A program made the translations under genes and the position numbers. Under the pieces are notes generated by a model that made no database searches, was not told the origin of the DNA, and saw only the letters and a list, made by a program, of their open reading frames with translations. DNA of 63,868 bases, counting the filler, from Rhabdomonas costata (lineage: Eukaryota), in the NCBI GenBank assembly GCA_019059605.1. It is 55 parts of 55 records of this genome, joined end to end, with 100 filler letters (N's around TTAATTAATTAA, not from the genome) between each part and the next. Parts side by side here need not be neighbours in the genome. Positions count along the whole stretch, not along the records: positions 62,806 to 63,868 come from JAHMHO010030633.1; 54 more parts are not named here. One strand, 5' to 3'. Positions 15,406 through 63,868 of this stretch are shown piece by piece. How positions within the stretch are numbered: the first letter of the stretch is position 1; each line of letters starts with the position of its first letter.

Positions 15406-17643
15406 CGAGCGCCAGAGAGGAGGTGCCCTTCCTTCTTTCTTATGTTACGGAAGTGCAGAAGGATTGGGTGGCTGTGTTTGAGCTCTTTTTGGGTCGATCT
15501 GTGTGGACGTTTGGGGTGGGATTTGGTTGGTTGTGCCGCCGCTTCCTTCGCTCACCTCCCTCTGTTGGTCGGTCCACCGGCCACACGGCTCAAACGAAGA
15601 ATGTAAGCTGCCGCAGTTACGGAAGCCTCCAAAATTCTGTTCATCTGATTGTGTTTGAAATACTTGAACTGAGGTGTTTGGACCTTCGTTTGCGGGCGGG
15701 CATGCACTGCTCTTTTTCCTGGTGCTTCCTCTCAATTCCAAAAAGTGGTGCTTGGTTTACTTTGTAAAGGCAAAGAAAAAATAAAGCAAAAGTAGAAAAC
15801 AAAATTCTCCCTGCACATCACACTTGTCTTTCTCAGTCCCAAAAATTTCTTCAAGATGTCCTGCCATTTTCGCGACCACTCCCGTCCTACTCTTGTTTTT
15901 CTGACAGCATTTCTTCTTCAAATTGGGTCGTTGGGACTAACAAAACTTCAAGAACATTTATTATGTTTAGTTAATGGACCCCTTTTGTATTTAGAATGTC
16001 GTCAATGTCTCCCTTCGAATGTTTCCAGTTTACAAGCTCAGGTAAAGGGTTTGGTTTTGGAAGGAAAAGGCCATGAAAGGACAGATGGTTCCCGTTTGTT
16101 TCCTTGAATAGTGAATGGATGCCTCAAGGTGAGCGTTTTGTTTTCTACTTTTGCTTTATTTTTTCTTTGCCTTTACAAAGTAAACCAACCCCCCNNNNNN
16201 NNNNNNNNNNNNNNNNNNNNNNNNNNNNNNNNNNNNNNTTAATTAATTAANNNNNNNNNNNNNNNNNNNNNNNNNNNNNNNNNNNNNNNNNNNNTGGTTT
16301 TGTGAACCGCGGGGTCCAGTTGCCGCGACGGAAAAATGGTTTGCCATGTTCTGGATGGTCGTGTGGTTCAAGAACCAGTCCAAAACCTGCCACAGTCACG
16401 GCGCGTCGTCGCACAACAGCACCGCCTCACAGCATAGAGCTCAGAGAAAATGAAGTGGACACCGGCGTTGCCACACATCACCCTCGTGGCCACATTCTCG
16501 TTCATAATATTCCGATCATAAAAAAAATATATGCTCGCCTTTTAAAACATCGACCACAGCCCCTTTCTGCACAGAACAATTCTCGGGGTGATGACAAAAG
16601 CAAACCTGGGCCACAGCGTCAGCGATCAGCTGGGCCGGATCGTTGGAGGGTTCCTTTCCACCAAGACCTAAAGTTTATGAGCGAATGGCCAGCACTCGGT
16701 CGCTATACTACACAGCCGAAAAAGGGAAATGAGAAACTACGATTCGTCCACCGCGGCACTAAGAAGCATATAGATGGGTGTGCGTGTGGGGTGGGGGGAA
16801 GATGTACTCAGGAAAACGAGCAAACCTGAATACTCGTTGCTAATTCTCCATGGATGAATCGCAGCAGAGATTGAATCGAAAGCCACAAAACAGAGCAGTG
16901 CCCAAAGCAAGCGCATTTTGATTGCCAGAAAGGCACCGCACAGTCTAACAGAGACAAAGCACGTGAAAGGAGCAGCGATATTCTGACGTGCATCAACCTG
17001 ACATTGACATCGTTTCTTTTGTTTCGTTCCTTTTTGCAACGTCTGACATCTAGTCTTTTTTTCAAGGCAGTCGAGGGCTGCTGTTGGATCTGGGGAAAAT
17101 GGAGCTATCTTGGTGGATTCGCGGTTCCAAAACAAAAGTCTCGTAAGTGCAAAAGTGAACAGCGTGTGCAATTTTCAGAACGCCGCACTTGACCGTCAAT
17201 GCCTTAAGTGATAAGTTAATATTGCATCCAGTTTCTGCAACGGGGGAAGGAAATTTCCTTGTGCAGAATCGCGGAATACCAAGGGATACGTTAGAAGCGA
17301 GCGGCGTCATACAAATTCTGCAAATTCAGAAGACTCCCAAAGTCCGACACCCCCCACNNNNNNNNNNNNNNNNNNNNNNNNNNNNNNNNNNNNNNNNNNN
17401 NTTAATTAATTAANNNNNNNNNNNNNNNNNNNNNNNNNNNNNNNNNNNNNNNNNNNNGTGTTGGGTGTGGTTGGGTGGTGGGGGGTTGGGTTTGTCTCTA
17501 GCTTAATAAGATCAATACAAGCATCCGAGGATGCCAAAAAGGGCAGAATGGGACCTGTAACCTCCGTCGTAAACCGGTGTTTCTAAATTGCAGGAACGTC
17601 CACTGGGGCTCACTCCCCGAATCCAAACCCAACCCCCCGCTGC

Positions 17644-18083
17644 CTTGACAAACTCCTCGCTCTCAGTAGCACGCGCAGACAGCACCCCCACCACCACAGG
17701 GGCCATCGCGCCCAGGCCCAGCAGCATCCGGAACTGCAGATCCGGACCGATCCTCAGCCCACACAGCAGCATGGCCACCATATATGGGGCCAGCGCGCCA
17801 AATGCCTGAAAGCAGAACACCAGCCCCGTGCGCTTGGCCCGGGTCCAGACATCCGCAGAGGCGCTGGCGCTCTCCGATGCGTGGGTGGCGGACAAGGGGT
17901 AGCACCCCCCGATGCCCACCCCCAGAAGGAAGCGGAACCCTGCAAGCAGCCCGAGCGCGGTGGGGGCGCTGCCCCAGACCCCGGCCGCGGAGGCCACCGC
18001 GGATAAGGCCATCACGGCGGAGGTCACAGCGAAAGCCCGATTGCGGCCAATCAGGTCCCCCAGGTAGCCCATTCCGCACATCC
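17644..18083 (-). CDS. MFS inorganic phosphate transporter (PHO84/Pht1 family), internal exon
   Basis: GYLGDLIGRNRA (MFS motif A), FRFLLGVGIGGCYPLSATHASE (Pht1 signature GGDYPLSATIxSE-like), RMLLGLGA. Confidence 0.92.
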
Positions 18084-18684
18084 CTGAGAAGGAAGGCACC
18101 GCACAGCAAATCGACAACCAGCATCTGATGAGCAGACACTCCGAATTCATCAAAGATAAGAATCTGGGGCTCTTGTGTCGTGATCACATCCATCCTTCAC
18201 TCACCTTTAGGCGATGGGAAATACGTCCACAATGCGTTCTCGGAGGAAATCGAACGAGCAGCTTGCAGCTTTCCATGAACAGGTTCTCAAAAAAGAAAAG
18301 AGACGAGGGCTATGCCAAAGCAGACCCGGGGTCTTTTACAAAAAACACCCACCTCTCACCTCACGCCAAACGGGAGCCAGGCAAATGGTTGGAGGCCGCC
18401 TCAAAAAGGTTTTTGTGGAAAAGCCAATAAGCCTAGGCAGAAGTATGCGCTCACATGCCAAAAATCGATCCCCCATACACCGCGCTCTTCAGGATGGCGT
18501 CCACGTTGCCCCCCCACAACNNNNNNNNNNNNNNNNNNNNNNNNNNNNNNNNNNNNNNNNNNNNTTAATTAATTAANNNNNNNNNNNNNNNNNNNNNNNN
18601 NNNNNNNNNNNNNNNNNNNNTGTGGGTGGTCCCAAACCGGAAAGAGGGCAAGAAGTACACAGTTCTCACCCGGAAACAACTTAC

Positions 18685-44254: not shown

Positions 44255-45259
44255 CAGACCAGTGGAAACTACATTAATGAACGTTTTTCGCACGATGCCC
44301 CACACAATTTACACGATGCCCCAACTACGTAAAAGGCTATAAACATATAGCCCTTTTATACAATGCTGGGCATCGTGAAAAGTGCGGGCAACGTGGTGGG
44401 CATCGCTCAAAACAGGCGGGGCATCGTGTAAATTGTCATGGGCATCGTTTGGGCATCGTGACAAATCGAATTCTTGTCATAAGAAAACGTGATTTTGCAG
44501 AAAATTAGGGTTGAGTGATGACTGTATTTTTCTCATTATGCATATTTTGTGTGGTTTTTTGCCTTCATTACCGCTTTTTCTAAGGTTTTCTTACAGGGCC
44601 TTTCCTGAGCATTTTTCGTCATCTATGGTGATTACCTCTTTCCGTCGGGCGTTGGCTGCTTTCCTTATATTGAGCGGTACTTCGTACAGAACCATCTCCG
44701 CCAAGTGTGGCATCTCTCTCGGCTCCGTTGCCCTCATTAAAAAGAAGCTTTTGCAAAAATCACCTGTTACCAGCTTCCCGAAGCCAGCTGGTCGCCACCG
44801 TAAGCTTGGGGCTCGAGAGAGGCGCCTGCTCATCCGAGCAGTGGGGAAAATGAGGAAAATGAATGTAAATTTTTCGGTTCGCCAACTGGCGAAAGAATGC
44901 GGCCTGCTGTCATGCGTCTCGCTGTCCACCCTATATCGGGAAATGCATCGAGGTGGTCTGCAGTGGAGCAATTTGCGCAGGAAAGGAATTCTATCCGCCC
45001 AAGACCGAAAAAAGCGCCTCGCTTGGTGCCAAAAGCACAAGCATCTCCCAGCTTCGTTTTGGGAAAACGTCGGTCTTTACCTGGATTGCGTGAGCTTTGT
45101 GCACAAAACGAGGCCAAAAGAATCAGGATGTGTCACGAAATCAAAGGCGTGGCTCAAAAAATCTGAAAAGCTTTCTGTGACTGCCAGGGGTCGCCACGAG
45201 CACGAATCCAAGTCAAAGGTTCTTCACCTCGTTGTTGCTATCTCTTATGGTTCTGGGCT
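44255..45259 (+). mobile_element. IS630/Tc1/mariner-superfamily DNA transposon: left end and 5' part of transposase
   Basis: Putative TA|CAG terminus at 44253-44257, subterminal repeats, and an uninterrupted ORF from ATG 44625 with two HTHs, GRHRKL linker, DRKKRLAWC and FWENVGLYLD (first catalytic Asp). Confidence 0.9.
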
Positions 45260-47585: not shown

Positions 47586-47735
47586 NNNNNNNNNNNNNNN
47601 NNNNNNNNNNNNNNNNNNNNNNNNNNNNNTTAATTAATTAANNNNNNNNNNNNNNNNNNNNNNNNNNNNNNNNNNNNNNNNNNNNGTGGGGTTGGGGTCC
47701 CTCAATATTGTGCGAGCCTTGGGTGTGGGGACAAG

Positions 47736-48584
47736 GCGATTACGTGGACCGTGGGGAGGGGTCCCTGGAGGTGGCGGCCACCCTGCTGGCGCTGAAGGTG
47801 TTGGCGCCCGATTCGATCTTCCTGCTGCGAGGCAACCACGAGACAGTGGACATCAACGGCGCAGTGGAGACATACGGCGCGACGTCGTTCTTGGCACTCT
47901 GCCACGCTCGCCTGGGAGCACAGCTCGGTACTTGGGTCCGTGGGTTCGCGAGTTACAATACCGTGTATTGTGCCATGTGTGCCATCGATTGGAAATCACG
48001 TAATGCAGTATTCTGTCGACGCGATGTGAATTTGCGATGCGATGTTATTTGAATGGCATTGTCAATTATGCGAATTGCGATGTGGTGGTAAGGGATCCCA
48101 AACTGACATGTTGTGTTGTGTTATCGGACTGTAATTTGAAGGCCCCCGCCCGGTAATCTGGGCTACTCGCTCGTGCTACTGCTACTGCTGCTGTGATGGC
48201 AGCTGGTCTGCACCGTTTTGGTAAGGGTGAGGATGATGGTGATGGAGATGCGATGAGCGATGTAATGTGAGAACTCTGAAGTGACAGTTGACATGTTTCG
48301 CATCCTGCTGCCTGTTGCTATGTCGGACGGTCCGGCCCTCTGCTTACCCCATTTCTAGCCTTCTGTGCAATAATAATGGGTAACTTCCAGTTTGGTCGCG
48401 TATGATATGCACGAATGTGAATGGGTTCCGGGTTTGTTCAAATGCGCGGGGACCAGGGTGCAGTACCCCACCGCATCCCTGCATTTCTCATTCTGTAAAC
48501 TTGCTGTGGTAGGGAGTCAGGTGCATGCGGCATTCAACGAGGCGTTCGCGTGCATGCCCCTGGCCGCGGTTGTGGACGAAAGAG
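47736..48584 (+). CDS. PPP-family Ser/Thr protein phosphatase, two exons
   Basis: Exon 47736-47927 GDYVDRG...IFLLRGNHE; exon 48513-48584 [23 protein letters not shown] in frame. Confidence 0.95.
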
Positions 48585-48852: not shown

Positions 48853-49460
48853 TTACAACTTGCTACAGTTCCCGGGCGCCAAGAGCTGTGCCTCCACTCC
48901 CAGGGCATTCAGCCCCGTAAGTGGCTGCGACGACCTTGGTGGGGTCAGCAGCTCTGGAGCAGGGAACTGTAGCAAGTTGTAGAACAGCACCGCACGGATA
49001 ACCGCGTAGTCCACGTCCCGCATGCGAATCTCAACTTTGGGAACAGCAACACTGTATCTCTGCAGGACTCCGGCGTTGTTACCGTCGGGGGGCGCCAGAG
49101 GACGAGTGAGTAAAGCTTTGATGGAAGTTTCAAAGGTGAAGGGCCCGGAGGAGGACCATGACAGCGTGGGCGACGCCTGAGCATGATGAAGGACCTGACA
49201 TTGAGCCTCTTCAAGGGAGATTGTGTACACCTCTTCGGCTGCCCCAGAGGCCTCAGAAACCGTTTGAAGGTTATTACTCAAGCGAAGGGAGGACATTCGT
49301 AGGGCAACGGTCTCGGGGCTTGAGGGGTGGTGGGGCATTAACATGCAGAGCTGGCTGACGTCGATTTTAATACGGGTCAGCGCAGTGGTGCCCTGAAGCA
49401 CGGCACGTGCGAGCCTTTCCGCCTCGTACGTGCCCAGCATGGTGAGCTCGGCGAAGGGGC
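48853..49460 (-). CDS. VPS13: VPS13-like bridge lipid-transfer protein, internal exon
   Basis: About 200-aa frame after a TTTTAG acceptor; IKIDVSQLCMLMPHHPSSPETVALRMSSLRLSN and VEIRMRDVDYAVIRAVLFYNL resemble VPS13 repeating beta-groove units. Confidence 0.6.
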
Positions 49461-50011
49461 CTAAAACGAGAAGCCACGAGAAGTGGAGAAGCCATGTCCA
49501 TTCTATAAACGCGAACCGAATCAATTGGGTCACACCCAACAAAATTACGTCACAAGGACTCACGCGGCCGACGGGACTTCGAGTTCCAAACCAAACAGCA
49601 GGTGGAAACTTCCAACAAACAACAAGGGTTAACGCAAAGCGTCCAATGACAACTACACAGAAGAGCGGCTCACAGGCAAAAGAAGGGGGGAAGCTTGTTC
49701 GGAATAGCGCAAGCGAAGCCGAAATAGACCGAATTACCGAAGTGCACCGAAACAAACCGAAGAATAAAACAACACTACTCCACTTCGACTGCTATGGCCT
49801 CGGAGGTAAACCGTAAAATCGTAAACGAATGCAGTGAAGGAGACAGTGCACGCACAGCACCGTTCAAGCAGTAGTCCCACAAGACAAAGAAGAACGTGGT
49901 GAAGTAAACCCNNNNNNNNNNNNNNNNNNNNNNNNNNNNNNNNNNNNNNNNNNNNTTAATTAATTAANNNNNNNNNNNNNNNNNNNNNNNNNNNNNNNNN
50001 NNNNNNNNNNN

Positions 50012-54663: not shown

Positions 54664-54911
54664 CTGATATGTATCTACTAAGAACGAATGCAGTTCACTA
54701 TATCGTTGCTTATTTACAAATTCCATCTGTTCCAATTGGTAGGCAAATTCGTATTCTTGATCTCAATAATAATCTAAGTACAACTCAATGTTTTATTTCA
54801 TCTGCAGACAATGCAATTATAGAATGGCAGTCAGGTGGAAAATTATTCACTGAAAATGGAGCGAATAGGTTACTGCTCTACATAGGAAGCTTTTTCATTC
54901 CTCTAAATTAA
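54664..54911 (+). CDS. C-terminus of a putative viral fibre/structural beta-rich protein
   Basis: Open from contig start; LQIPSVPIGRQIRILDLNNN...GANRLLLYIG resembles fibre-type beta domains; AT-rich contig. Confidence 0.5.
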
Positions 54912-54943
54912 TAAAAGAATTCAAAAAGTCTTTTATTAATTTA
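54904..54943. terminator. Perfect 15-bp AT-rich hairpin between convergent genes
   Basis: taaattaataaaaga (54904-54918), 10-nt loop, tcttttattaattta (54929-54943); overlaps both stop codons. Confidence 0.65.
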
Positions 54944-55127
54944 TCATTCTTTGTATTGTGTTAATTTTTGAATTTAATTTATTCGTTCTATGTTCTAACA
55001 CGAAAATACGATCAATAACTTCTTCAAGCTCTTTATTATCTTTTGGTAAACCAAAACCAATCTCTTTATTATTTACTTCTTTTTGTGTTGGTTCCTCTTC
55101 TTTTGATATACAGCAACATGAACCCAT
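54936..55127 (-). CDS. Small putative viral protein with N-myristoylation/palmitoylation motif and coiled coil
   Basis: MGSCCCIS start; KELEEVIDRIFVLEHRTNKLNSKINTI heptads; TAAATG start context. Confidence 0.7.
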   Translation of the reverse strand: MGSCCCISKEEEPTQKEVNNKEIGFGLPKDNKELEEVIDRIFVLEHRTNKLNSKINTIQRMIN

Positions 55128-55140
55128 TTAGTATTACTTC

Positions 55141-55323
55141 TCATTTTTTTATCGAACATAAATTTAAACAAATGAAAACATTTTTCACATACCATTTTTT
55201 ATCTTCATGAATAATACAACGAAAATATGGTATTTGTCTGTAATCATTTCTATTTAGAAAGTACATTTTAGTATTTTCATCATCAAAGTTCAATATTTGT
55301 TTACAGTGTTCACAACGATTCAT
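55141..55323 (-). CDS. Small putative viral Zn-binding protein
   Basis: CEHC...CIIH...CLNLC; TAAATG start; tightly packed with neighbours. Confidence 0.65.
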   Translation of the reverse strand: MNRCEHCKQILNFDDENTKMYFLNRNDYRQIPYFRCIIHEDKKWYVKNVFICLNLCSIKK

Positions 55324-55347
55324 TTATTATATACTGTTATAATATAA

Positions 55348-55584
55348 ATGAATCTTGAACTAATATACGAAAATGAATTAGATGAAAATGAATTAGTAGA
55401 AATGGAACAAAGCACAAATCAAATAACAGAACAAGACAAAAGATTAAAAGAAATTCTTGAAAAACTTTATGAAGTTGAACATAAAATAGACGATATCTTC
55501 AAAAATTTATGTGAAGTTGGTTCAAAAATTGGAAACATATATACAGTATTAAATGATATTGATAAATGTATTCAATTACGTTAA
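55348..55584 (+). CDS. Small putative viral coiled-coil protein
   Basis: 78 aa with Ile/Leu heptads; TAAATG start; divergent from the previous ORF across 24 bp. Confidence 0.7.
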   Translation: MNLELIYENELDENELVEMEQSTNQITEQDKRLKEILEKLYEVEHKIDDIFKNLCEVGSKIGNIYTVLNDIDKCIQLR

Positions 55585-55608
55585 CAATAAATTTCTCATT
55601 ATATTATA

Positions 55609-55726
55609 ATGGACTACTACACAATGTCAGATTTAGTCGAAAACCTAAAAATAATGATTGCTTTTAAAGAGCAAGAAGCTATGAAATTACAATTAGAATC
55701 TAATAACGATCTAAACACAAACATTA
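55609..55726 (+). CDS. 5' part of a further small putative viral ORF
   Basis: TATAATG start, MDYYTMSDLVENLKIMIAFKEQEAMKLQLE..., open to contig end. Confidence 0.55.
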
Positions 55727-56012: not shown

Positions 56013-57297
56013 GTTCGCCAGTTTCGTGGCCAAAGAGACTTCAATTCGTTGCAGGATCGCCATTTGTTGAGCTCGCTGCTTCGTTTGCGGGCAAACAGTC
56101 TTCTCACGGAAAATAGTCAGAGTTTGTGGAGCACCGCTGTTTCATGTGGAAACGAACGAGCGAATGTCTCCGCAGCACTTGTTGGGTGCTCTGTGGCATT
56201 GGGAGTGTGGGGAAGGGGATGTCTGCTAATGGTTTCTGTAACTTTAGGCTGCGTGCAAACCCTCCGCACAGACTCTGCGTAGCCATTGCTGAGCAAAAAG
56301 CACGGGCTGAAACGAGCTCACGCGCGTATGGGATGTGATCTTGTAATCCTGAGCCTACATGTTGTACTTCCCCGCATGAGCTGTCGCGCCGGGCGCCGCT
56401 TGGCTCTCCTCCCTATCTAATTTCGGTTCCAGCGGTCTGTGAATCCTTGGGAACAAAGGTGATGTTGGCCGGCCTTTTTCTCGGGGAGGAGGGGCGCAGT
56501 CTCCCGAAGCACGCCCAAACGCCATGTACTCGTCTTTTATCTGATAATCCCCCAATCTGCAAAACCACCAAATAATCAGTCTAATCGTTCCTTGTTTTTT
56601 GTCACCGCTTGAAAGTGTTACATCTGGCAACCGCCCCACCTCCCGCCGTAAATTAACGCACCCTACTTTTCCGTTCATGATTGTTCAACTACCATGGGCC
56701 GGGCACCGTTCCCAATGTACGTTTTCGCTTTTCCACATGGAGTGTGCGGTTCCTTGCACAGAGTCATGCACCACTGGTGCAATCCGCCTTCCCACACTGA
56801 CATCCTCACCCTGACACCACCACCCTAGGGATTGTCTTCAGGCATTTACAGAAACGCTCGCTCCCCTTGCTGCGCCCAGAACCAACACANNNNNNNNNNN
56901 NNNNNNNNNNNNNNNNNNNNNNNNNNNNNNNNNTTAATTAATTAANNNNNNNNNNNNNNNNNNNNNNNNNNNNNNNNNNNNNNNNNNNNTGTTTGTGGCA
57001 GGCAAAACACCTGACCTGCCACAAATCTTCACCATTCCCCGCTTTTCTGATGCGGCCACATACGCAAACCACGATATTCACTATTGACCATGGGACTGAA
57101 ATGTGTGTGTGCGCGCGCGCGTTCCACAGGACAGACAGACAGATACACACACACACACAGTCGGCAAGATCGGCGCCAAACCAAAGCGATGTGAAAACTA
57201 CGATGCCGTAAGGAGCCAGATGGGTGTCGGTATCGTGCGCCGGGCAGATGAGCAACACTTCACGGGACGAATGGTCGTTCAGCGCCAGAAAGCAAAC

Positions 57298-58052
57298 CTC
57301 AACTGCCGCCTCGGTGCTTCGGACATGCGTTATTTCCACTCCACGCTCCTTCATGGCCTTCAGGTGGTCGCGCAGGCAGGACTGCCCCATGTCCCGGGTG
57401 TCCACCCAGAGCACACGGCGAATGGTGAGGGTGTGCCACCTGCGGCCGCACTTAAACATAAACTTCTGCGGGTCCGGGCCGCGATTCCTAGCACGGGGCA
57501 CCGCGGACTCCTGGGGGGCTGAGCCCTCCACGGGTGACCCCTGCACGGGGTTTTTTGGGATGACTCGGATCACGTGCTTGCCTTTTTTGAACCACCCCTC
57601 GTCCATCATCGTGTTCTCTTTAACCTTCAGGCTGCCGCCGCCGCTGACAGGCATTGGGAGCTCCTTCCCTTCTTCCCATTCAGTATCCTTCCCTTGAGAA
57701 AGGCGCTCTTCCTCCTCCACTTCCTCCTCCTCTTCCATACTTCCGTTCTTCTCCTCCACTACCACTTCAGCTTCCTCATTACTGACCCAGGAACCGGCTC
57801 CGGCTGCTGCAGCGTTGCGGGCGGTCGCTTTGAGTTCCCTGGCGGTGTTGATTCTGTCCATGATCTTCTCACGACGCTCTTTGTCTTTCGGGTTCCCCCA
57901 CAGGGAGCAGATGTTCGACCGTGCTATGATCGCCGTCGAGTTGGCCACTAGGTCCTCGCACCAGGAGTACTCGTTGTCCTTGCCGCTGGCCCAGCGGTTG
58001 CCCGCACACCCCTGGATCGCCGCCACAGGGTCCGAGGAGTGGATGTACGCCA
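57298..58052 (-). CDS. Macrodomain-like protein (paralogue 2) with acidic linker and receiver-like domain start
   Basis: AYIHSSDPVAAIQGCAGNRWASG...EDLVANSTAIIARSNICSLWG aligns with 46080-46240; then an E-rich linker and RRVLWVDTRD...GVEITHVRSTEAAVE. Confidence 0.7.
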
Positions 58053-58410
58053 NNNNNNNNNNNNNNNNNNNNNNNNNNNNNNNNNNNNNNNNNNNNTTAA
58101 TTAATTAANNNNNNNNNNNNNNNNNNNNNNNNNNNNNNNNNNNNNNNNNNNNGGGTTGGGGTAGTGACAGTGGTGGTGATAGCGCTGGTGCCAACACCGA
58201 CAGGAGAGGGAGGAGGGAGGAGGAGGTGGTAGTGGTGTGTTGGCGAATCAGACTCCACATATGTGGTCATCTCTGCAAAAAAAAATTGGCCAAGTCTGGA
58301 GAAGAAGGGGCTACGATAGAATCTCTGCAGACGGACGGTTCCACTCCTCCTGAAGCTATCAGCACCGTACCCAGCACCTTCCCCCCCCCTACTCTTCTCC
58401 CGCCAGCTAC

Positions 58411-58703
58411 CATCGTTCTGCTGCGTGGTGCACGTGTTGAACGCCCTCCCAAACGCCCAGAACGGGAAGGCGCATGGCGTCCCCACAGGGGCAGAGCCGA
58501 CGCCGTCCGTGCAGAACTTCGTCCCCGCGGGCAGGGGCTCCGGGGCGGTGCCATTCTTGCACCTGGTGCAGTAGCCCCACTGCCCCTCGTCCAACCCCAG
58601 GTCCACGGCGGTCGTTCCGCAAAACCCCTGCGACTCCTCGGGATCGTCGGATTCCTTCACGCACTCGTAGAACAGCTCACCACCGTACGAGAACGGGAAC
58701 AGG
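58411..58703 (-). CDS. Tandem fibronectin type II domain protein, internal exon
   Basis: LFPFSYGGELFYECV...GFCGTTAVD...GQWGYC then GTPCAFPFWAFGRAFNTCTT; AG/GT bounded. Confidence 0.85.
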
Positions 58704-59356
58704 CTATATCAAAAGGCAGAAACCGACTGCATCCGAGCTCCGATGCTTTTTTGTGTAGAGTGTAAATTCAGCTTCGCTGAGGACGTCCTCTTTTTGTGGT
58801 TCAAAATAGCTGTTAACGCGCGGGGTGCTGCAGGTGAGCCTGCATGCGAGTTCTTTTTCTGCCAGGTAGCAAAATGCAAAACGACCTACAAAAAAGGACT
58901 CAACCTTGGCTGCCATGGTAAGGATGGCAACAACAAACAAAGTCTTTCCAGCCCCGTGCGATGCAGACATGAAGTACTTATGGCTACACAAAAGCAGCCC
59001 CGCCAAAAAAATCCTGGGGGTTAAAAAGAAGTGTTCCTGCAACAATGCTCCAGAAATAATGCGTCTGCCCCGGTCCCAGGTGCCATACACCCCACACCCC
59101 AACTTTTCCGAGCGATTACTGGCGACATTTGCACAGGCAAGCTGGGTGCTGTCAGAAGACCTCAGCGAACGACAAACGAAAGCTTTCATGCCAGCGCCAG
59201 CAAAGACAACCCCCCNNNNNNNNNNNNNNNNNNNNNNNNNNNNNNNNNNNNNNNNNNNNTTAATTAATTAANNNNNNNNNNNNNNNNNNNNNNNNNNNNN
59301 NNNNNNNNNNNNNNNTTTGTTGTTTGCTAGACTTTCGTTTTGTTGGGGGTGAACAG

Positions 59357-62241: not shown

Positions 62242-63259
62242 TTTGCGGGAAAACGATGGACTCACGACGACTCGAATGATAAGCGGGGGATGAAAAAACG
62301 AAAGCACGGGGCACAGCGAAAAAGAAAACACGGAAAAAAGAACTGTGAAATACTTCCCGAAATCCGGGACAAAAGGTAATCTGGGGGCGCTTTTCCGCCC
62401 CAAAAAAACCTTCCAATTTCCTGTTCACCTTCCTCCTGTATTTTCATGCAGTTGTCCAACGCGCGTTAAAATGAGACGGGTGCAAAGGACGCGGAAAATG
62501 GCATCGCAAGGGCGATGAAGGCTTCCCATGCCTAAGGTCCAAGTTCTGGGGAACCATTTCGACAGCGCCGCACTGTATTCAATCTCCTTTGTTTCACTAC
62601 ATGCGGGTGCAGATTCCTTCCCTGTGATGTCTGGGCCAGGTGCAATTCCATTAGTTGGTTGGTGGTGGTGGGGTGATTCATTAATTCGCTAGTAGCGCCA
62701 AAAACNNNNNNNNNNNNNNNNNNNNNNNNNNNNNNNNNNNNNNNNNNNNTTAATTAATTAANNNNNNNNNNNNNNNNNNNNNNNNNNNNNNNNNNNNNNN
62801 NNNNNTGTGGTGGTGCAAAACCGAAATGTAGTGAGGAACCGCAGTTAAGGACCGCAGTTGGGGCACCACTTTTTCAGCTTCCTCTGGACTGTACAGCCAG
62901 ACCACCTCTTCTTGTGGCTGTTGGCTGCTTTTGGCCATTGACAGATCAGGCGAAGTCTGGTGCCGCAAAGCATGCTGATCAGCAGGGCGGCACGCTGTCC
63001 AACCTGAAGTCCGAGAACAACAAAACGCGTCAAAAGACTATGAAGGTCGTGAGAGTACTGCATGCCGCAAAAGTGACAGATAACAAAATGTAGGGTCGTA
63101 ATGCAAGCGATGTCATAAAGTAAAGCTGCAGTGAAGCACGCAGATATAAACTGCATGAAGCCACAACATAGATACACGGGGTCCCACATTCGGCACACAA
63201 AAAGACAGCGGTAAAGCTGCCGAAACCACCGCCTGAGATCAAATGCGTTCGACCTAGCT

Positions 63260-63868
63260 TTAAAATGCCGTTGGTAGATTGGTGCTCCCAATAGGAATTG
63301 TCGAGAGACTGCAAGCAAAAAGAGAACCTCGAGCAATTGGAGAAACGTCTCCCAAGCTTTGAACAACATCCATTTTGACAGGAAAGCCGAAATCTGTGGA
63401 CTGGAGAAGACCCTCGGGGAACTCCAAAAGAGGTTGCACAATCCTCGAGACCTCGTTTGCGTTCTCCTCGGGAGCTTCTATGATCAGTGTATCATTCATA
63501 TAAATGACGATCCGGGCACCCAACTTCCGCAGCTGGGTGTCTTTCCAAACACCCAGCATTCCCAGCATCACCACATCCACGACCCCACCCTGGGTGATGG
63601 CATCCAACACCTTTTGCTCCAAAGCAAACTTTAAAGCTGGTATAGATTGCAACCGCTGCGCTGAGATGTTCACAATGGAGGAAACAGGAAGGCGGCGCCC
63701 AAGCATCGTGCGCACCCAGCCGTTTACCCTTGCCTCCTCCAGAAGCCTGTTCCTCCAGGCTGCTGTTCCAGAATGCCCTGCGCTTCTCGAAATAGCAGAC
63801 AGCACATTGCGCTCAAAATGCACATAGCTGGCGACAACCAGTCTCTTTGATGCGGGAGCTACAAAAAC
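63260..63868 (-). CDS. Degenerate family-A DNA polymerase C-terminal domain (POP-like), predicted catalytically inactive
   Basis: Motif A-like FVAPASKRLVVASYVHFERNVLS; GWVRTMLGRR; DAITQGGVVDVVMLGM; motif C-like LRKLGARIVIYMNDTLIIEAPEENA; about 200 codons without a stop. Confidence 0.85.
   Translation of the reverse strand, partial: VFVAPASKRLVVASYVHFERNVLSAISRSAGHSGTAAWRNRLLEEARVNGWVRTMLGRRLPVSSIVNISAQRLQSIPALKFALEQKVLDAITQGGVVDVVMLGMLGVWKDTQLRKLGARIVIYMNDTLIIEAPEENANEVSRIVQPLLEFPEGLLQSTDFGFPVKMDVVQSLGDVSPIARGSLFACSLSTIPIGSTNLPTAF

Follow-up and report, generated by a model that had tools for sequence, protein, structure and literature searches.

The stretch of DNA analysed here (hereafter the window, 63,868 bases) consists of 55 contig pieces of 1056–1068 bp each, separated by N44-TTAATTAATTAA-N44 filler, and its last piece (62806–63868, 1,063 bp) carries the 3′ part of a putative gene related to the plant and protist organellar polymerase (POP) subfamily of family-A DNA polymerases. 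This polymerase-tail open reading frame (ORF; P0001) occupies 63260–63868 on the minus strand and comprises 202 codons and a TAA stop; its 5′ side is open at the end of the contig and of the window. It begins with a motif A strand and helix (residues 1–28, VFVAPASKRLVVASYVHFERNVLSAISR; 63785–63868, minus strand), which is followed by a nine-residue linker, SAGHSGTAA, in the place of the fingers subdomain (residues 29–37; 63758–63784, minus strand). The second half of the palm, with GWVRTMLGRR, QGGVVD and the motif C sequence YMNDTL, makes up residues 38–176 (63341–63757, minus strand), and a C-terminal extension of about 26 residues (residues 177–202 and the stop; 63260–63340, minus strand) continues past the usual stop. 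Because the window joins separate contigs, adjacent pieces are not neighbours in the genome; the whole finding thus depends on one contig of 1,063 bp, with no genomic context to be had from the remaining 54 pieces. The contig is called euglenid here because its nearest protein relatives are euglenid POPs.

Motifs of the polymerase tail and the missing fingers

The frame contains no stop or frameshift in any of its 202 codons, and its alignment to relatives requires no change of frame. It matches the Pfam family DNA_pol_A (PF00476) at E 9.8e-12 (44.9 bits, cut-off 34.3), with residues 33–149 corresponding to positions 249–358 of the 381-position profile. The best match by sequence to a solved structure is Klentaq (E 1.8e-11), in which residues 36–149 lie on chain positions 412–516 and GWVRTMLGRR is paired with GYVETLFGRR, QGGVVD with QGTAAD, and YMNDTLIIE with QVHDELVLE. 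Among proteins the closest relative is P0002 (BBU67633.1), and BLASTP aligns residues 38–174 to its residues 708–869 with E 2e-21.

In Pol I-type enzymes the O-helix, which carries motif B, serves in binding of the deoxynucleoside triphosphate (dNTP), and motifs A and C supply the two-metal site. All three elements are altered or absent in the frame. Motif A spans residues 10–24 (LVVASYVHFERNVLS) and was identified by BLASTP alignment of residues 1–28 to P0002 569–596, whose motif A segment reads CFLAPPGKVLIVADYSQVELRVLTVVSK; 12 of the 28 residues are identical (E 8e-4), and the MAFFT alignments agree. Ser14 (codon 63827–63829) occupies the position of the metal-binding aspartate, a residue found in 98% of 61 aligned rows; the frame reads S-Y-V-H-F-E-R-N where the family has D-Y-S-Q-x-E-L-R. 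Motif C (residues 123–128, 63485–63502) is aligned with Taq QVHDEL and reads Y-M-N-D-T in place of Q-V-H-D-E, with Gln replaced by Tyr, His by Asn and Glu by Thr; each of these three residues is 99% conserved in 67 aligned rows. The fingers are missing altogether. Residues 597–707 of P0002 (111 aa, comprising the fingers and motif B, KMAKTVNFAVLYG) are matched by only nine residues of the frame, relatives carry about 105–125 residues where it has SAGHSGTAA, and both MAFFT alignments (17 rows and 121 rows) place a single gap there that is as wide as the fingers. The O-helix pattern R-x-x-A-K-x-x-N-F-x-x-x-Y-G is absent from the frame, and GWVRTMLGRR (residues 50–59, 63692–63721) follows motif A at a distance of 25 residues. 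The original prediction had described each of these features, namely an Asp to Ser change in motif A, loss of the fingers with GWVRTMLGRR about 25 residues after motif A, a degenerate motif C and an uninterrupted frame of about 200 codons, and it holds for all of them except that the catalytic aspartate of motif C (D126) is retained, as the Taq alignment makes plain.

It is likely that such a protein would have no polymerase activity, since the known roles of these motifs imply that activity would require the fingers and motif B, the motif A aspartate, and the motif C histidine and glutamate, all of which are missing. The description of the protein as catalytically dead in the original prediction therefore appears sound on the loss of the fingers, the Asp to Ser change and the degenerate motif C. 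By the same inference, a replicative function for the product would be excluded.

The assignment of the motif A segment to the same coding unit as the palm deserves attention. If an exon began at about residue 33, the motif A look-alike would be translated from an intron that happens to be open, and the real motif A and fingers would lie on upstream exons off the contig. HMMER significance is confined to residues 33–149, with no significant alignment for the first 35 residues; the GC content at third codon positions (GC3) is 0.40 in residues 1–35 and 0.62 in the core; and two GCAG strings are present at the junction. Set against this, residues 1–28 align by BLASTP to the P0002 motif A collinearly with the main block, are aligned there in every multiple alignment, and run without a stop, in the same frame, into the downstream part. 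They also retain 6 of 14 conserved columns, a fraction equal to that of the remainder of the frame, which argues for one history for the entire frame. A misread exon structure is accordingly very improbable.

A different concern is the assembly, in which the gap could represent a chimeric join or a collapse introduced by the assembler, the true gene having fingers. The contig is only 1,063 bp long among equally short pieces, and an imperfect 16-nt tandem repeat adjoins the junction (63735–63750, TCCTCCAGAAGCCTGT; 63751–63766, TCCTCCAGGCTGCTGT; 75% identical). By a rough estimate, however, this repeat is no better than chance, and the join is in frame and falls exactly at the entry to and exit from the fingers. 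Moreover, the flanks are degenerate on both sides, such that a protein with its fingers restored would still lack the motif A aspartate and the motif C histidine and glutamate. We regard an artefact of this kind as improbable, if less so than a misread exon.

Predicted structure

The palm, which the original prediction took to be retained, is also recovered in a structural model. AlphaFold2, run with a 68-row alignment built from the top matches of the ORF (A1), gave a mean pLDDT (predicted local distance difference test) of 86.5 and a predicted TM-score (pTM) of 0.79 for a model that depends on its input alignment and does not prove folding. It places a strand at residues 8–15 and a helix at 18–29, which together form motif A, then a short loop and a helix at 35–49; the first three blocks have mean pLDDT values of 95, 94 and 88, and the block of residues 31–40 a mean of 83. 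Residues 186–202 fall below 50 and are predicted to be disordered. The best Foldseek match is again Klentaq (E 1.1e-11, TMq 0.69), and VIA-align superposes model residues 1–176 on Taq 597–831 with Z 17.0 and a root-mean-square deviation of 2.6 Å over 163 aligned residues. That Taq span is 235 residues long, and its unmatched part is the fingers. The alignment of the model to Taq thus indicates that the deletion cuts the fingers at the entry to and exit from the palm, and in the model the remainder closes into a compact palm. In its predicted fold the protein resembles the palm of bacterial Pol I and Klentaq (PDB 5w6q, 3po4); it differs in that about 70 Taq fingers residues have no counterpart and in the replacement of catalytic and DNA-contact residues.

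Relatives and phylogeny

A protein search that covered 1.84 billion cluster representatives, including transcriptome proteomes of Euglena gracilis, E. longa and Rhabdomonas costata, returned 585 matches at E<=1e-3, of which four reached E<=1e-10 and none E<=1e-30. P0002 came first, with E 8.4e-15 and 38% identity, and no protein more than 38% identical was found in that set. Both P0002 and P0011 (BBU67632.1) are Rhabdomonas costata proteins named 'putative mitochondrial DNA polymerase', and P0008 is the Rapaza viridis counterpart; further named matches were the POPs of Cyanidioschyzon, Selaginella and Polysphondylium and proteins of Perkinsus and a dinoflagellate. The study that described the euglenid enzymes identifies the Rhabdomonas pair as POP_Rhabd1/2, with a polymerase domain only, and reports that Rapaza and Euglena share POP_e1 (Harada et al., 2020; PMC7238167). 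Other searches with the locus were negative. A 34-nt exact pattern taken from it had no match in metagenome contigs, and a search for related loci in the same contigs gave 122 pattern matches, none of which was confirmed; 2573 candidates for longer homologous proteins yielded none at E<=0.001; the ESM Atlas returned only clusters of short phage PolA fragments (scores 0.93–0.94); and Rfam had no match in the entire window.

Two trees were built, both by a quick method and with a query that is a short, long-branched row. In the 90-row tree the ORF falls within a 39-row clade (SH-aLRT 95) that contains every named POP, although its placement inside the clade lacks resolution, and its terminal branch measures 1.66 where the median is 0.54. 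The best topology of the 31-row tree places it beside the two Rhabdomonas sequences at a support of 33, the POP side having a support of 73, and here the terminal branch is 4.64 against 0.64. The resemblance to the POP subfamily that the original prediction had noted is borne out by this clade and by the best named matches, which are euglenid POPs. Descent of the ORF from a POP-type family-A polymerase has moderate support from these comparisons; a specific affinity with POP_Rhabd is a lead only.

Loss of conserved positions

Erosion of the frame was measured against a POP reference set assembled independently of it, with the Rapaza protein as query (120 proteins listed, reduced to 45 by a 75% identity filter). 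The ORF retains 28 of the 61 columns with at least 90% conservation across the 45 POPs (25 of 61 on re-alignment), and other POPs retain a median of 98% (range 81–100%). At these columns POP_Rhabd proteins keep 50–53 of 61 (82–87%), the dinoflagellate and Perkinsus proteins 45–48 of 59, and two bacterial Pol I rows 41 of 61 (67%). Bacterial Pol I thus retains more of the POP-conserved positions than the ORF does. Among the changed residues are the motif A aspartate, Arg to Gln and Asn to Asp in the E-R-x-A-x-N block, and the Gln, His and Glu of motif C; those kept include Thr54, Gly57, Arg58, Gln93, Gly94, Asp98, Asp126, Glu131 and Pro133, and the block LRKLGARI...EAPEENA still fits the POP consensus L..LG....LQVHDE.I.EGPEE.A. 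When columns are divided by conservation (>=90, 70–90, 50–70, 30–50 and <30%), the ORF keeps 28/61, 3/17, 12/28, 6/33 and 5/20, that is 46, 18, 43, 18 and 25%, against POP medians of 98, 82, 53, 47 and 20%. Positions have therefore been lost across all classes, a pattern that fits general relaxation rather than a change targeted at the active site.

A selective loss at highly conserved sites had been suggested by alignment A1, in which the ORF keeps 12 of 26 columns conserved at 90% or more (other rows: median 96%, minimum 65%) and, by class, 46/45/45/43/27% against 96/78/59/39/20%. This apparent selectivity was discarded because the rows of A1 were chosen by their similarity to the ORF, and the independent POP set has no such pattern.

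The open frame and neutral decay

The core of the frame (residues 36–175) has a GC content of 0.60, 0.36 and 0.62 at the three codon positions, which is coding-like. The chance that a decaying copy would remain open was estimated by simulation: random substitutions, with a transition bias of 2 and no indels, were introduced into the ORF DNA up to a preset level of amino-acid divergence. The frame remained free of stops in 815 of 2000 runs at 10% divergence, 325 at 20%, 151 at 30%, 44 at 45% and 20 at 54%. A passage from a typical POP, with 82–98% of conserved columns kept, to the 41–46% seen here requires roughly 45–54% replacement, so that, for this presumed ancestor, a purely neutral history leaves the frame open about 1–2% of the time, and lower still with indels. 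Absence of stops from 202 codons despite such divergence, together with the coding-like composition of the core, favours selection for a translated frame, and the suggestion in the original prediction that the open frame had been kept gains indirect support from the 45% and 54% simulations.

The interpretation that we favour, with a probability of roughly 45%, is that the locus holds a paralogue derived from a POP and no longer catalytic, its frame having been maintained by selection until recently at least. The tail would be the vestigial palm with which a POP_Rhabd-like protein ends, and the locus a tandem one of POP-like genes. The fingers subdomain would have been lost by a clean in-frame excision at its boundaries. 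The resulting copy, lacking a site for the dNTP and with its two-metal site incomplete, would not be a polymerase, and it may have evolved as a translated non-catalytic protein until recently at least; residual activity, if any, would probably reside in N-terminal sequence beyond the contig end.

Several observations weigh against this interpretation. The frame is known from one short contig (1,063 bp) in a highly fragmented assembly, and it leaves the contig end at motif A, with any exonuclease motifs and targeting peptide of the N-terminus beyond it. Its closest protein is only 38% identical, even with three euglenid transcriptome proteomes in the search. All 16 aligned relatives terminate at W-x-E-A-K or within a few residues of it, and the ORF reads on for about 26 codons into an extension whose GC3 is 0.26, non-coding-like in comparison with the 0.62 of the core; the low GC3 of residues 1–35 and the erosion across all conservation classes point in the same direction. 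In addition, the simulation presumes a typical POP ancestor, and the locus was chosen for its open frame, an ascertainment bias that weakens the simulation argument.

Much of this evidence would suit a dead pseudogene, in which a decaying POP duplicate or array fragment evolves neutrally and is open by luck or on account of a recent death. Conserved positions are gone in every class, the motif A aspartate, the fingers and the motif C histidine and glutamate have all been lost, the usual stop has been passed into a predicted disordered tail, the terminal branch is very long, and no close relative appears among the proteomes. Nevertheless, a pseudogene would have to account for 202 codons without a stop or frameshift, an outcome reached in only 1.0–2.2% of neutral runs in which indels were not counted, for a core in which codon-position GC is still coding-like, and for a deletion that is in frame and lies exactly on subdomain boundaries. 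A pseudogene is the strongest competitor to the non-catalytic paralogue and, at perhaps one chance in a few, a somewhat doubtful one.

A probable second POP-like gene head downstream

A tblastn search of the entire window with seven POPs recovered the polymerase tail and one further match, in which residues 69–97 of P0011 align to 62905–62819 on the minus strand (17 of 29 identical, E 0.005). The match lies within a frame that starts at an ATG at 62936–62938, continues as MAKSSQQPQEEVVWLYSPEEAEKVVPQLRSLTAVPHYISVLHHH and leaves the contig end (62806–62938, minus strand). A spacer of 321 nt (62939–63259, minus strand) separates the stop of the polymerase tail from this ATG; the chance frames that overlap it match no Pfam family. 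In pairwise BLASTP the gene head aligns to P0011 with E 6e-7, and P0011 is the best of 226 PolA proteins (E 3e-5). P0015 (598–628; Pfam exonuclease domain 605–817) and P0010 (434–444; exonuclease domain 427–629) give weaker matches where their exonuclease domains begin. Counting against a POP-like identity, the head has no BLASTP alignment to P0002 and no Pfam match in its 44 residues. It is nonetheless likely, judging from these alignments, that 62806–62938 is the start of a second POP-like gene, resembling the beginning of the exonuclease-like N-domain in POP_Rhabd. The matched segment is preceded by a 68-residue N-terminal stretch in P0011 and by only 11 residues here.

The position of this head, 321 nt past the stop and on the same strand, suggests a head-to-tail pair or array of POP-like genes. 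Such a tandem locus may have been the setting for divergence of duplicates and for internal deletions. Identity to Rhabdomonas is 59% at the start of the N-domain (29 residues) and about 30% in the palm. On a more elaborate interpretation, the fingerless palm with its defective metal site would be selected as a structural module within a head-to-tail POP array whose exonuclease-like N-domain, lacking a presequence, is the better conserved part, and the role of the proteins would be non-replicative and possibly non-organellar. We consider this unlikely, although less so than an assembly artefact.

Other pieces of the window

Frames of at least 200 aa occur in 13 of the 55 pieces; by a rough calculation, random sequence of 50% GC would yield well under one such piece. 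Pfam matches outside the polymerase tail are few. A fibronectin type II (fn2) match lies at 58154–58708 on the minus strand (E 2.6e-10); it is unexpected beside a euglenid-like polymerase, and the pieces may have more than one source organism. The piece at 54664–55726 has a GC content of 0.259, compared with 0.43–0.59 in the other 54, contains short frames only, and may be organellar or of another source. A 255-aa frame at 44493–45257 (plus strand) matches the Tc3-type transposase helix-turn-helix (HTH) family (PF01498, E 6.1e-7, just under the cut-off) and HTH_23, and is likely a fragment of a Tc1/mariner-type element. An exon of a sugar transporter of the major facilitator superfamily (PF00083, E 1.7e-9) is found at 17512–18183 (minus strand), its nearest similar-length proteins being 38–45% identical, and a 121-aa frame at 47687–48049 (plus strand) matches the calcineurin-like phosphoesterase family (Metallophos, E 7.1e-6). 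Two long frames, one of 353 aa that fills its piece (56990–58052, minus strand) and one of 312 aa (48853–49791, minus strand), match no Pfam family.

Comparison with known polymerases and significance

Euglenozoans have unusual organelle genomes and several family-A polymerase paralogues. To judge from the available part of the 2020 survey, the euglenid POP types e1, e2 and Rhabd have so far been catalogued from transcriptomes only (PMC7238167). POP_Rhabd1/2 (Harada et al., 2020; PMC7238167) provide the closest comparison, both as the best match of the tail, with a collinear motif A and palm, and through the start of the P0011 N-domain, which the downstream gene head resembles. They differ in having complete fingers, motif B, DYSQ and QVHDE, and in keeping 50–53 of the 61 conserved columns, against 25 in the ORF. 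Mitochondrial presequences are predicted for them (PMC7238167), whereas the neighbouring gene head here begins MAKSSQQPQEE. With respect to POPs at large (2023, PMC10201439), the ORF lies inside the clade formed by those of C. merolae, Selaginella, Polysphondylium, Perkinsus, Rapaza and Rhabdomonas, but it has no fingers or motif B, has lost the motif A aspartate, and is changed at more than half of the POP-conserved positions. The view that it is a degenerate POP derivative has moderate support. No fingerless or catalytically dead family-A member was found in a limited search of parts of three papers (PMC7238167, PMC10877234, PMC10201439) and of the wider literature.

A parallel exists in another polymerase family. 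The inactive half of Pol epsilon, a family-B polymerase, has the polymerase fold without catalysis and is retained as a scaffold. In that case, however, both retention and function have been demonstrated, whereas for the ORF described here they are putative.

If the locus is only a pseudogene, it would be a marker of a past POP duplication in the lineage, of limited wider interest. If, on the other hand, it is a non-catalytic paralogue, it would be a first example of a family-A polymerase that has become a non-catalytic module with its frame kept and, if selected as a structural module, a family-A counterpart of the inactivated halves of family-B polymerases. A tandem arrangement of POP-like genes would, in addition, show how POP paralogues originate.

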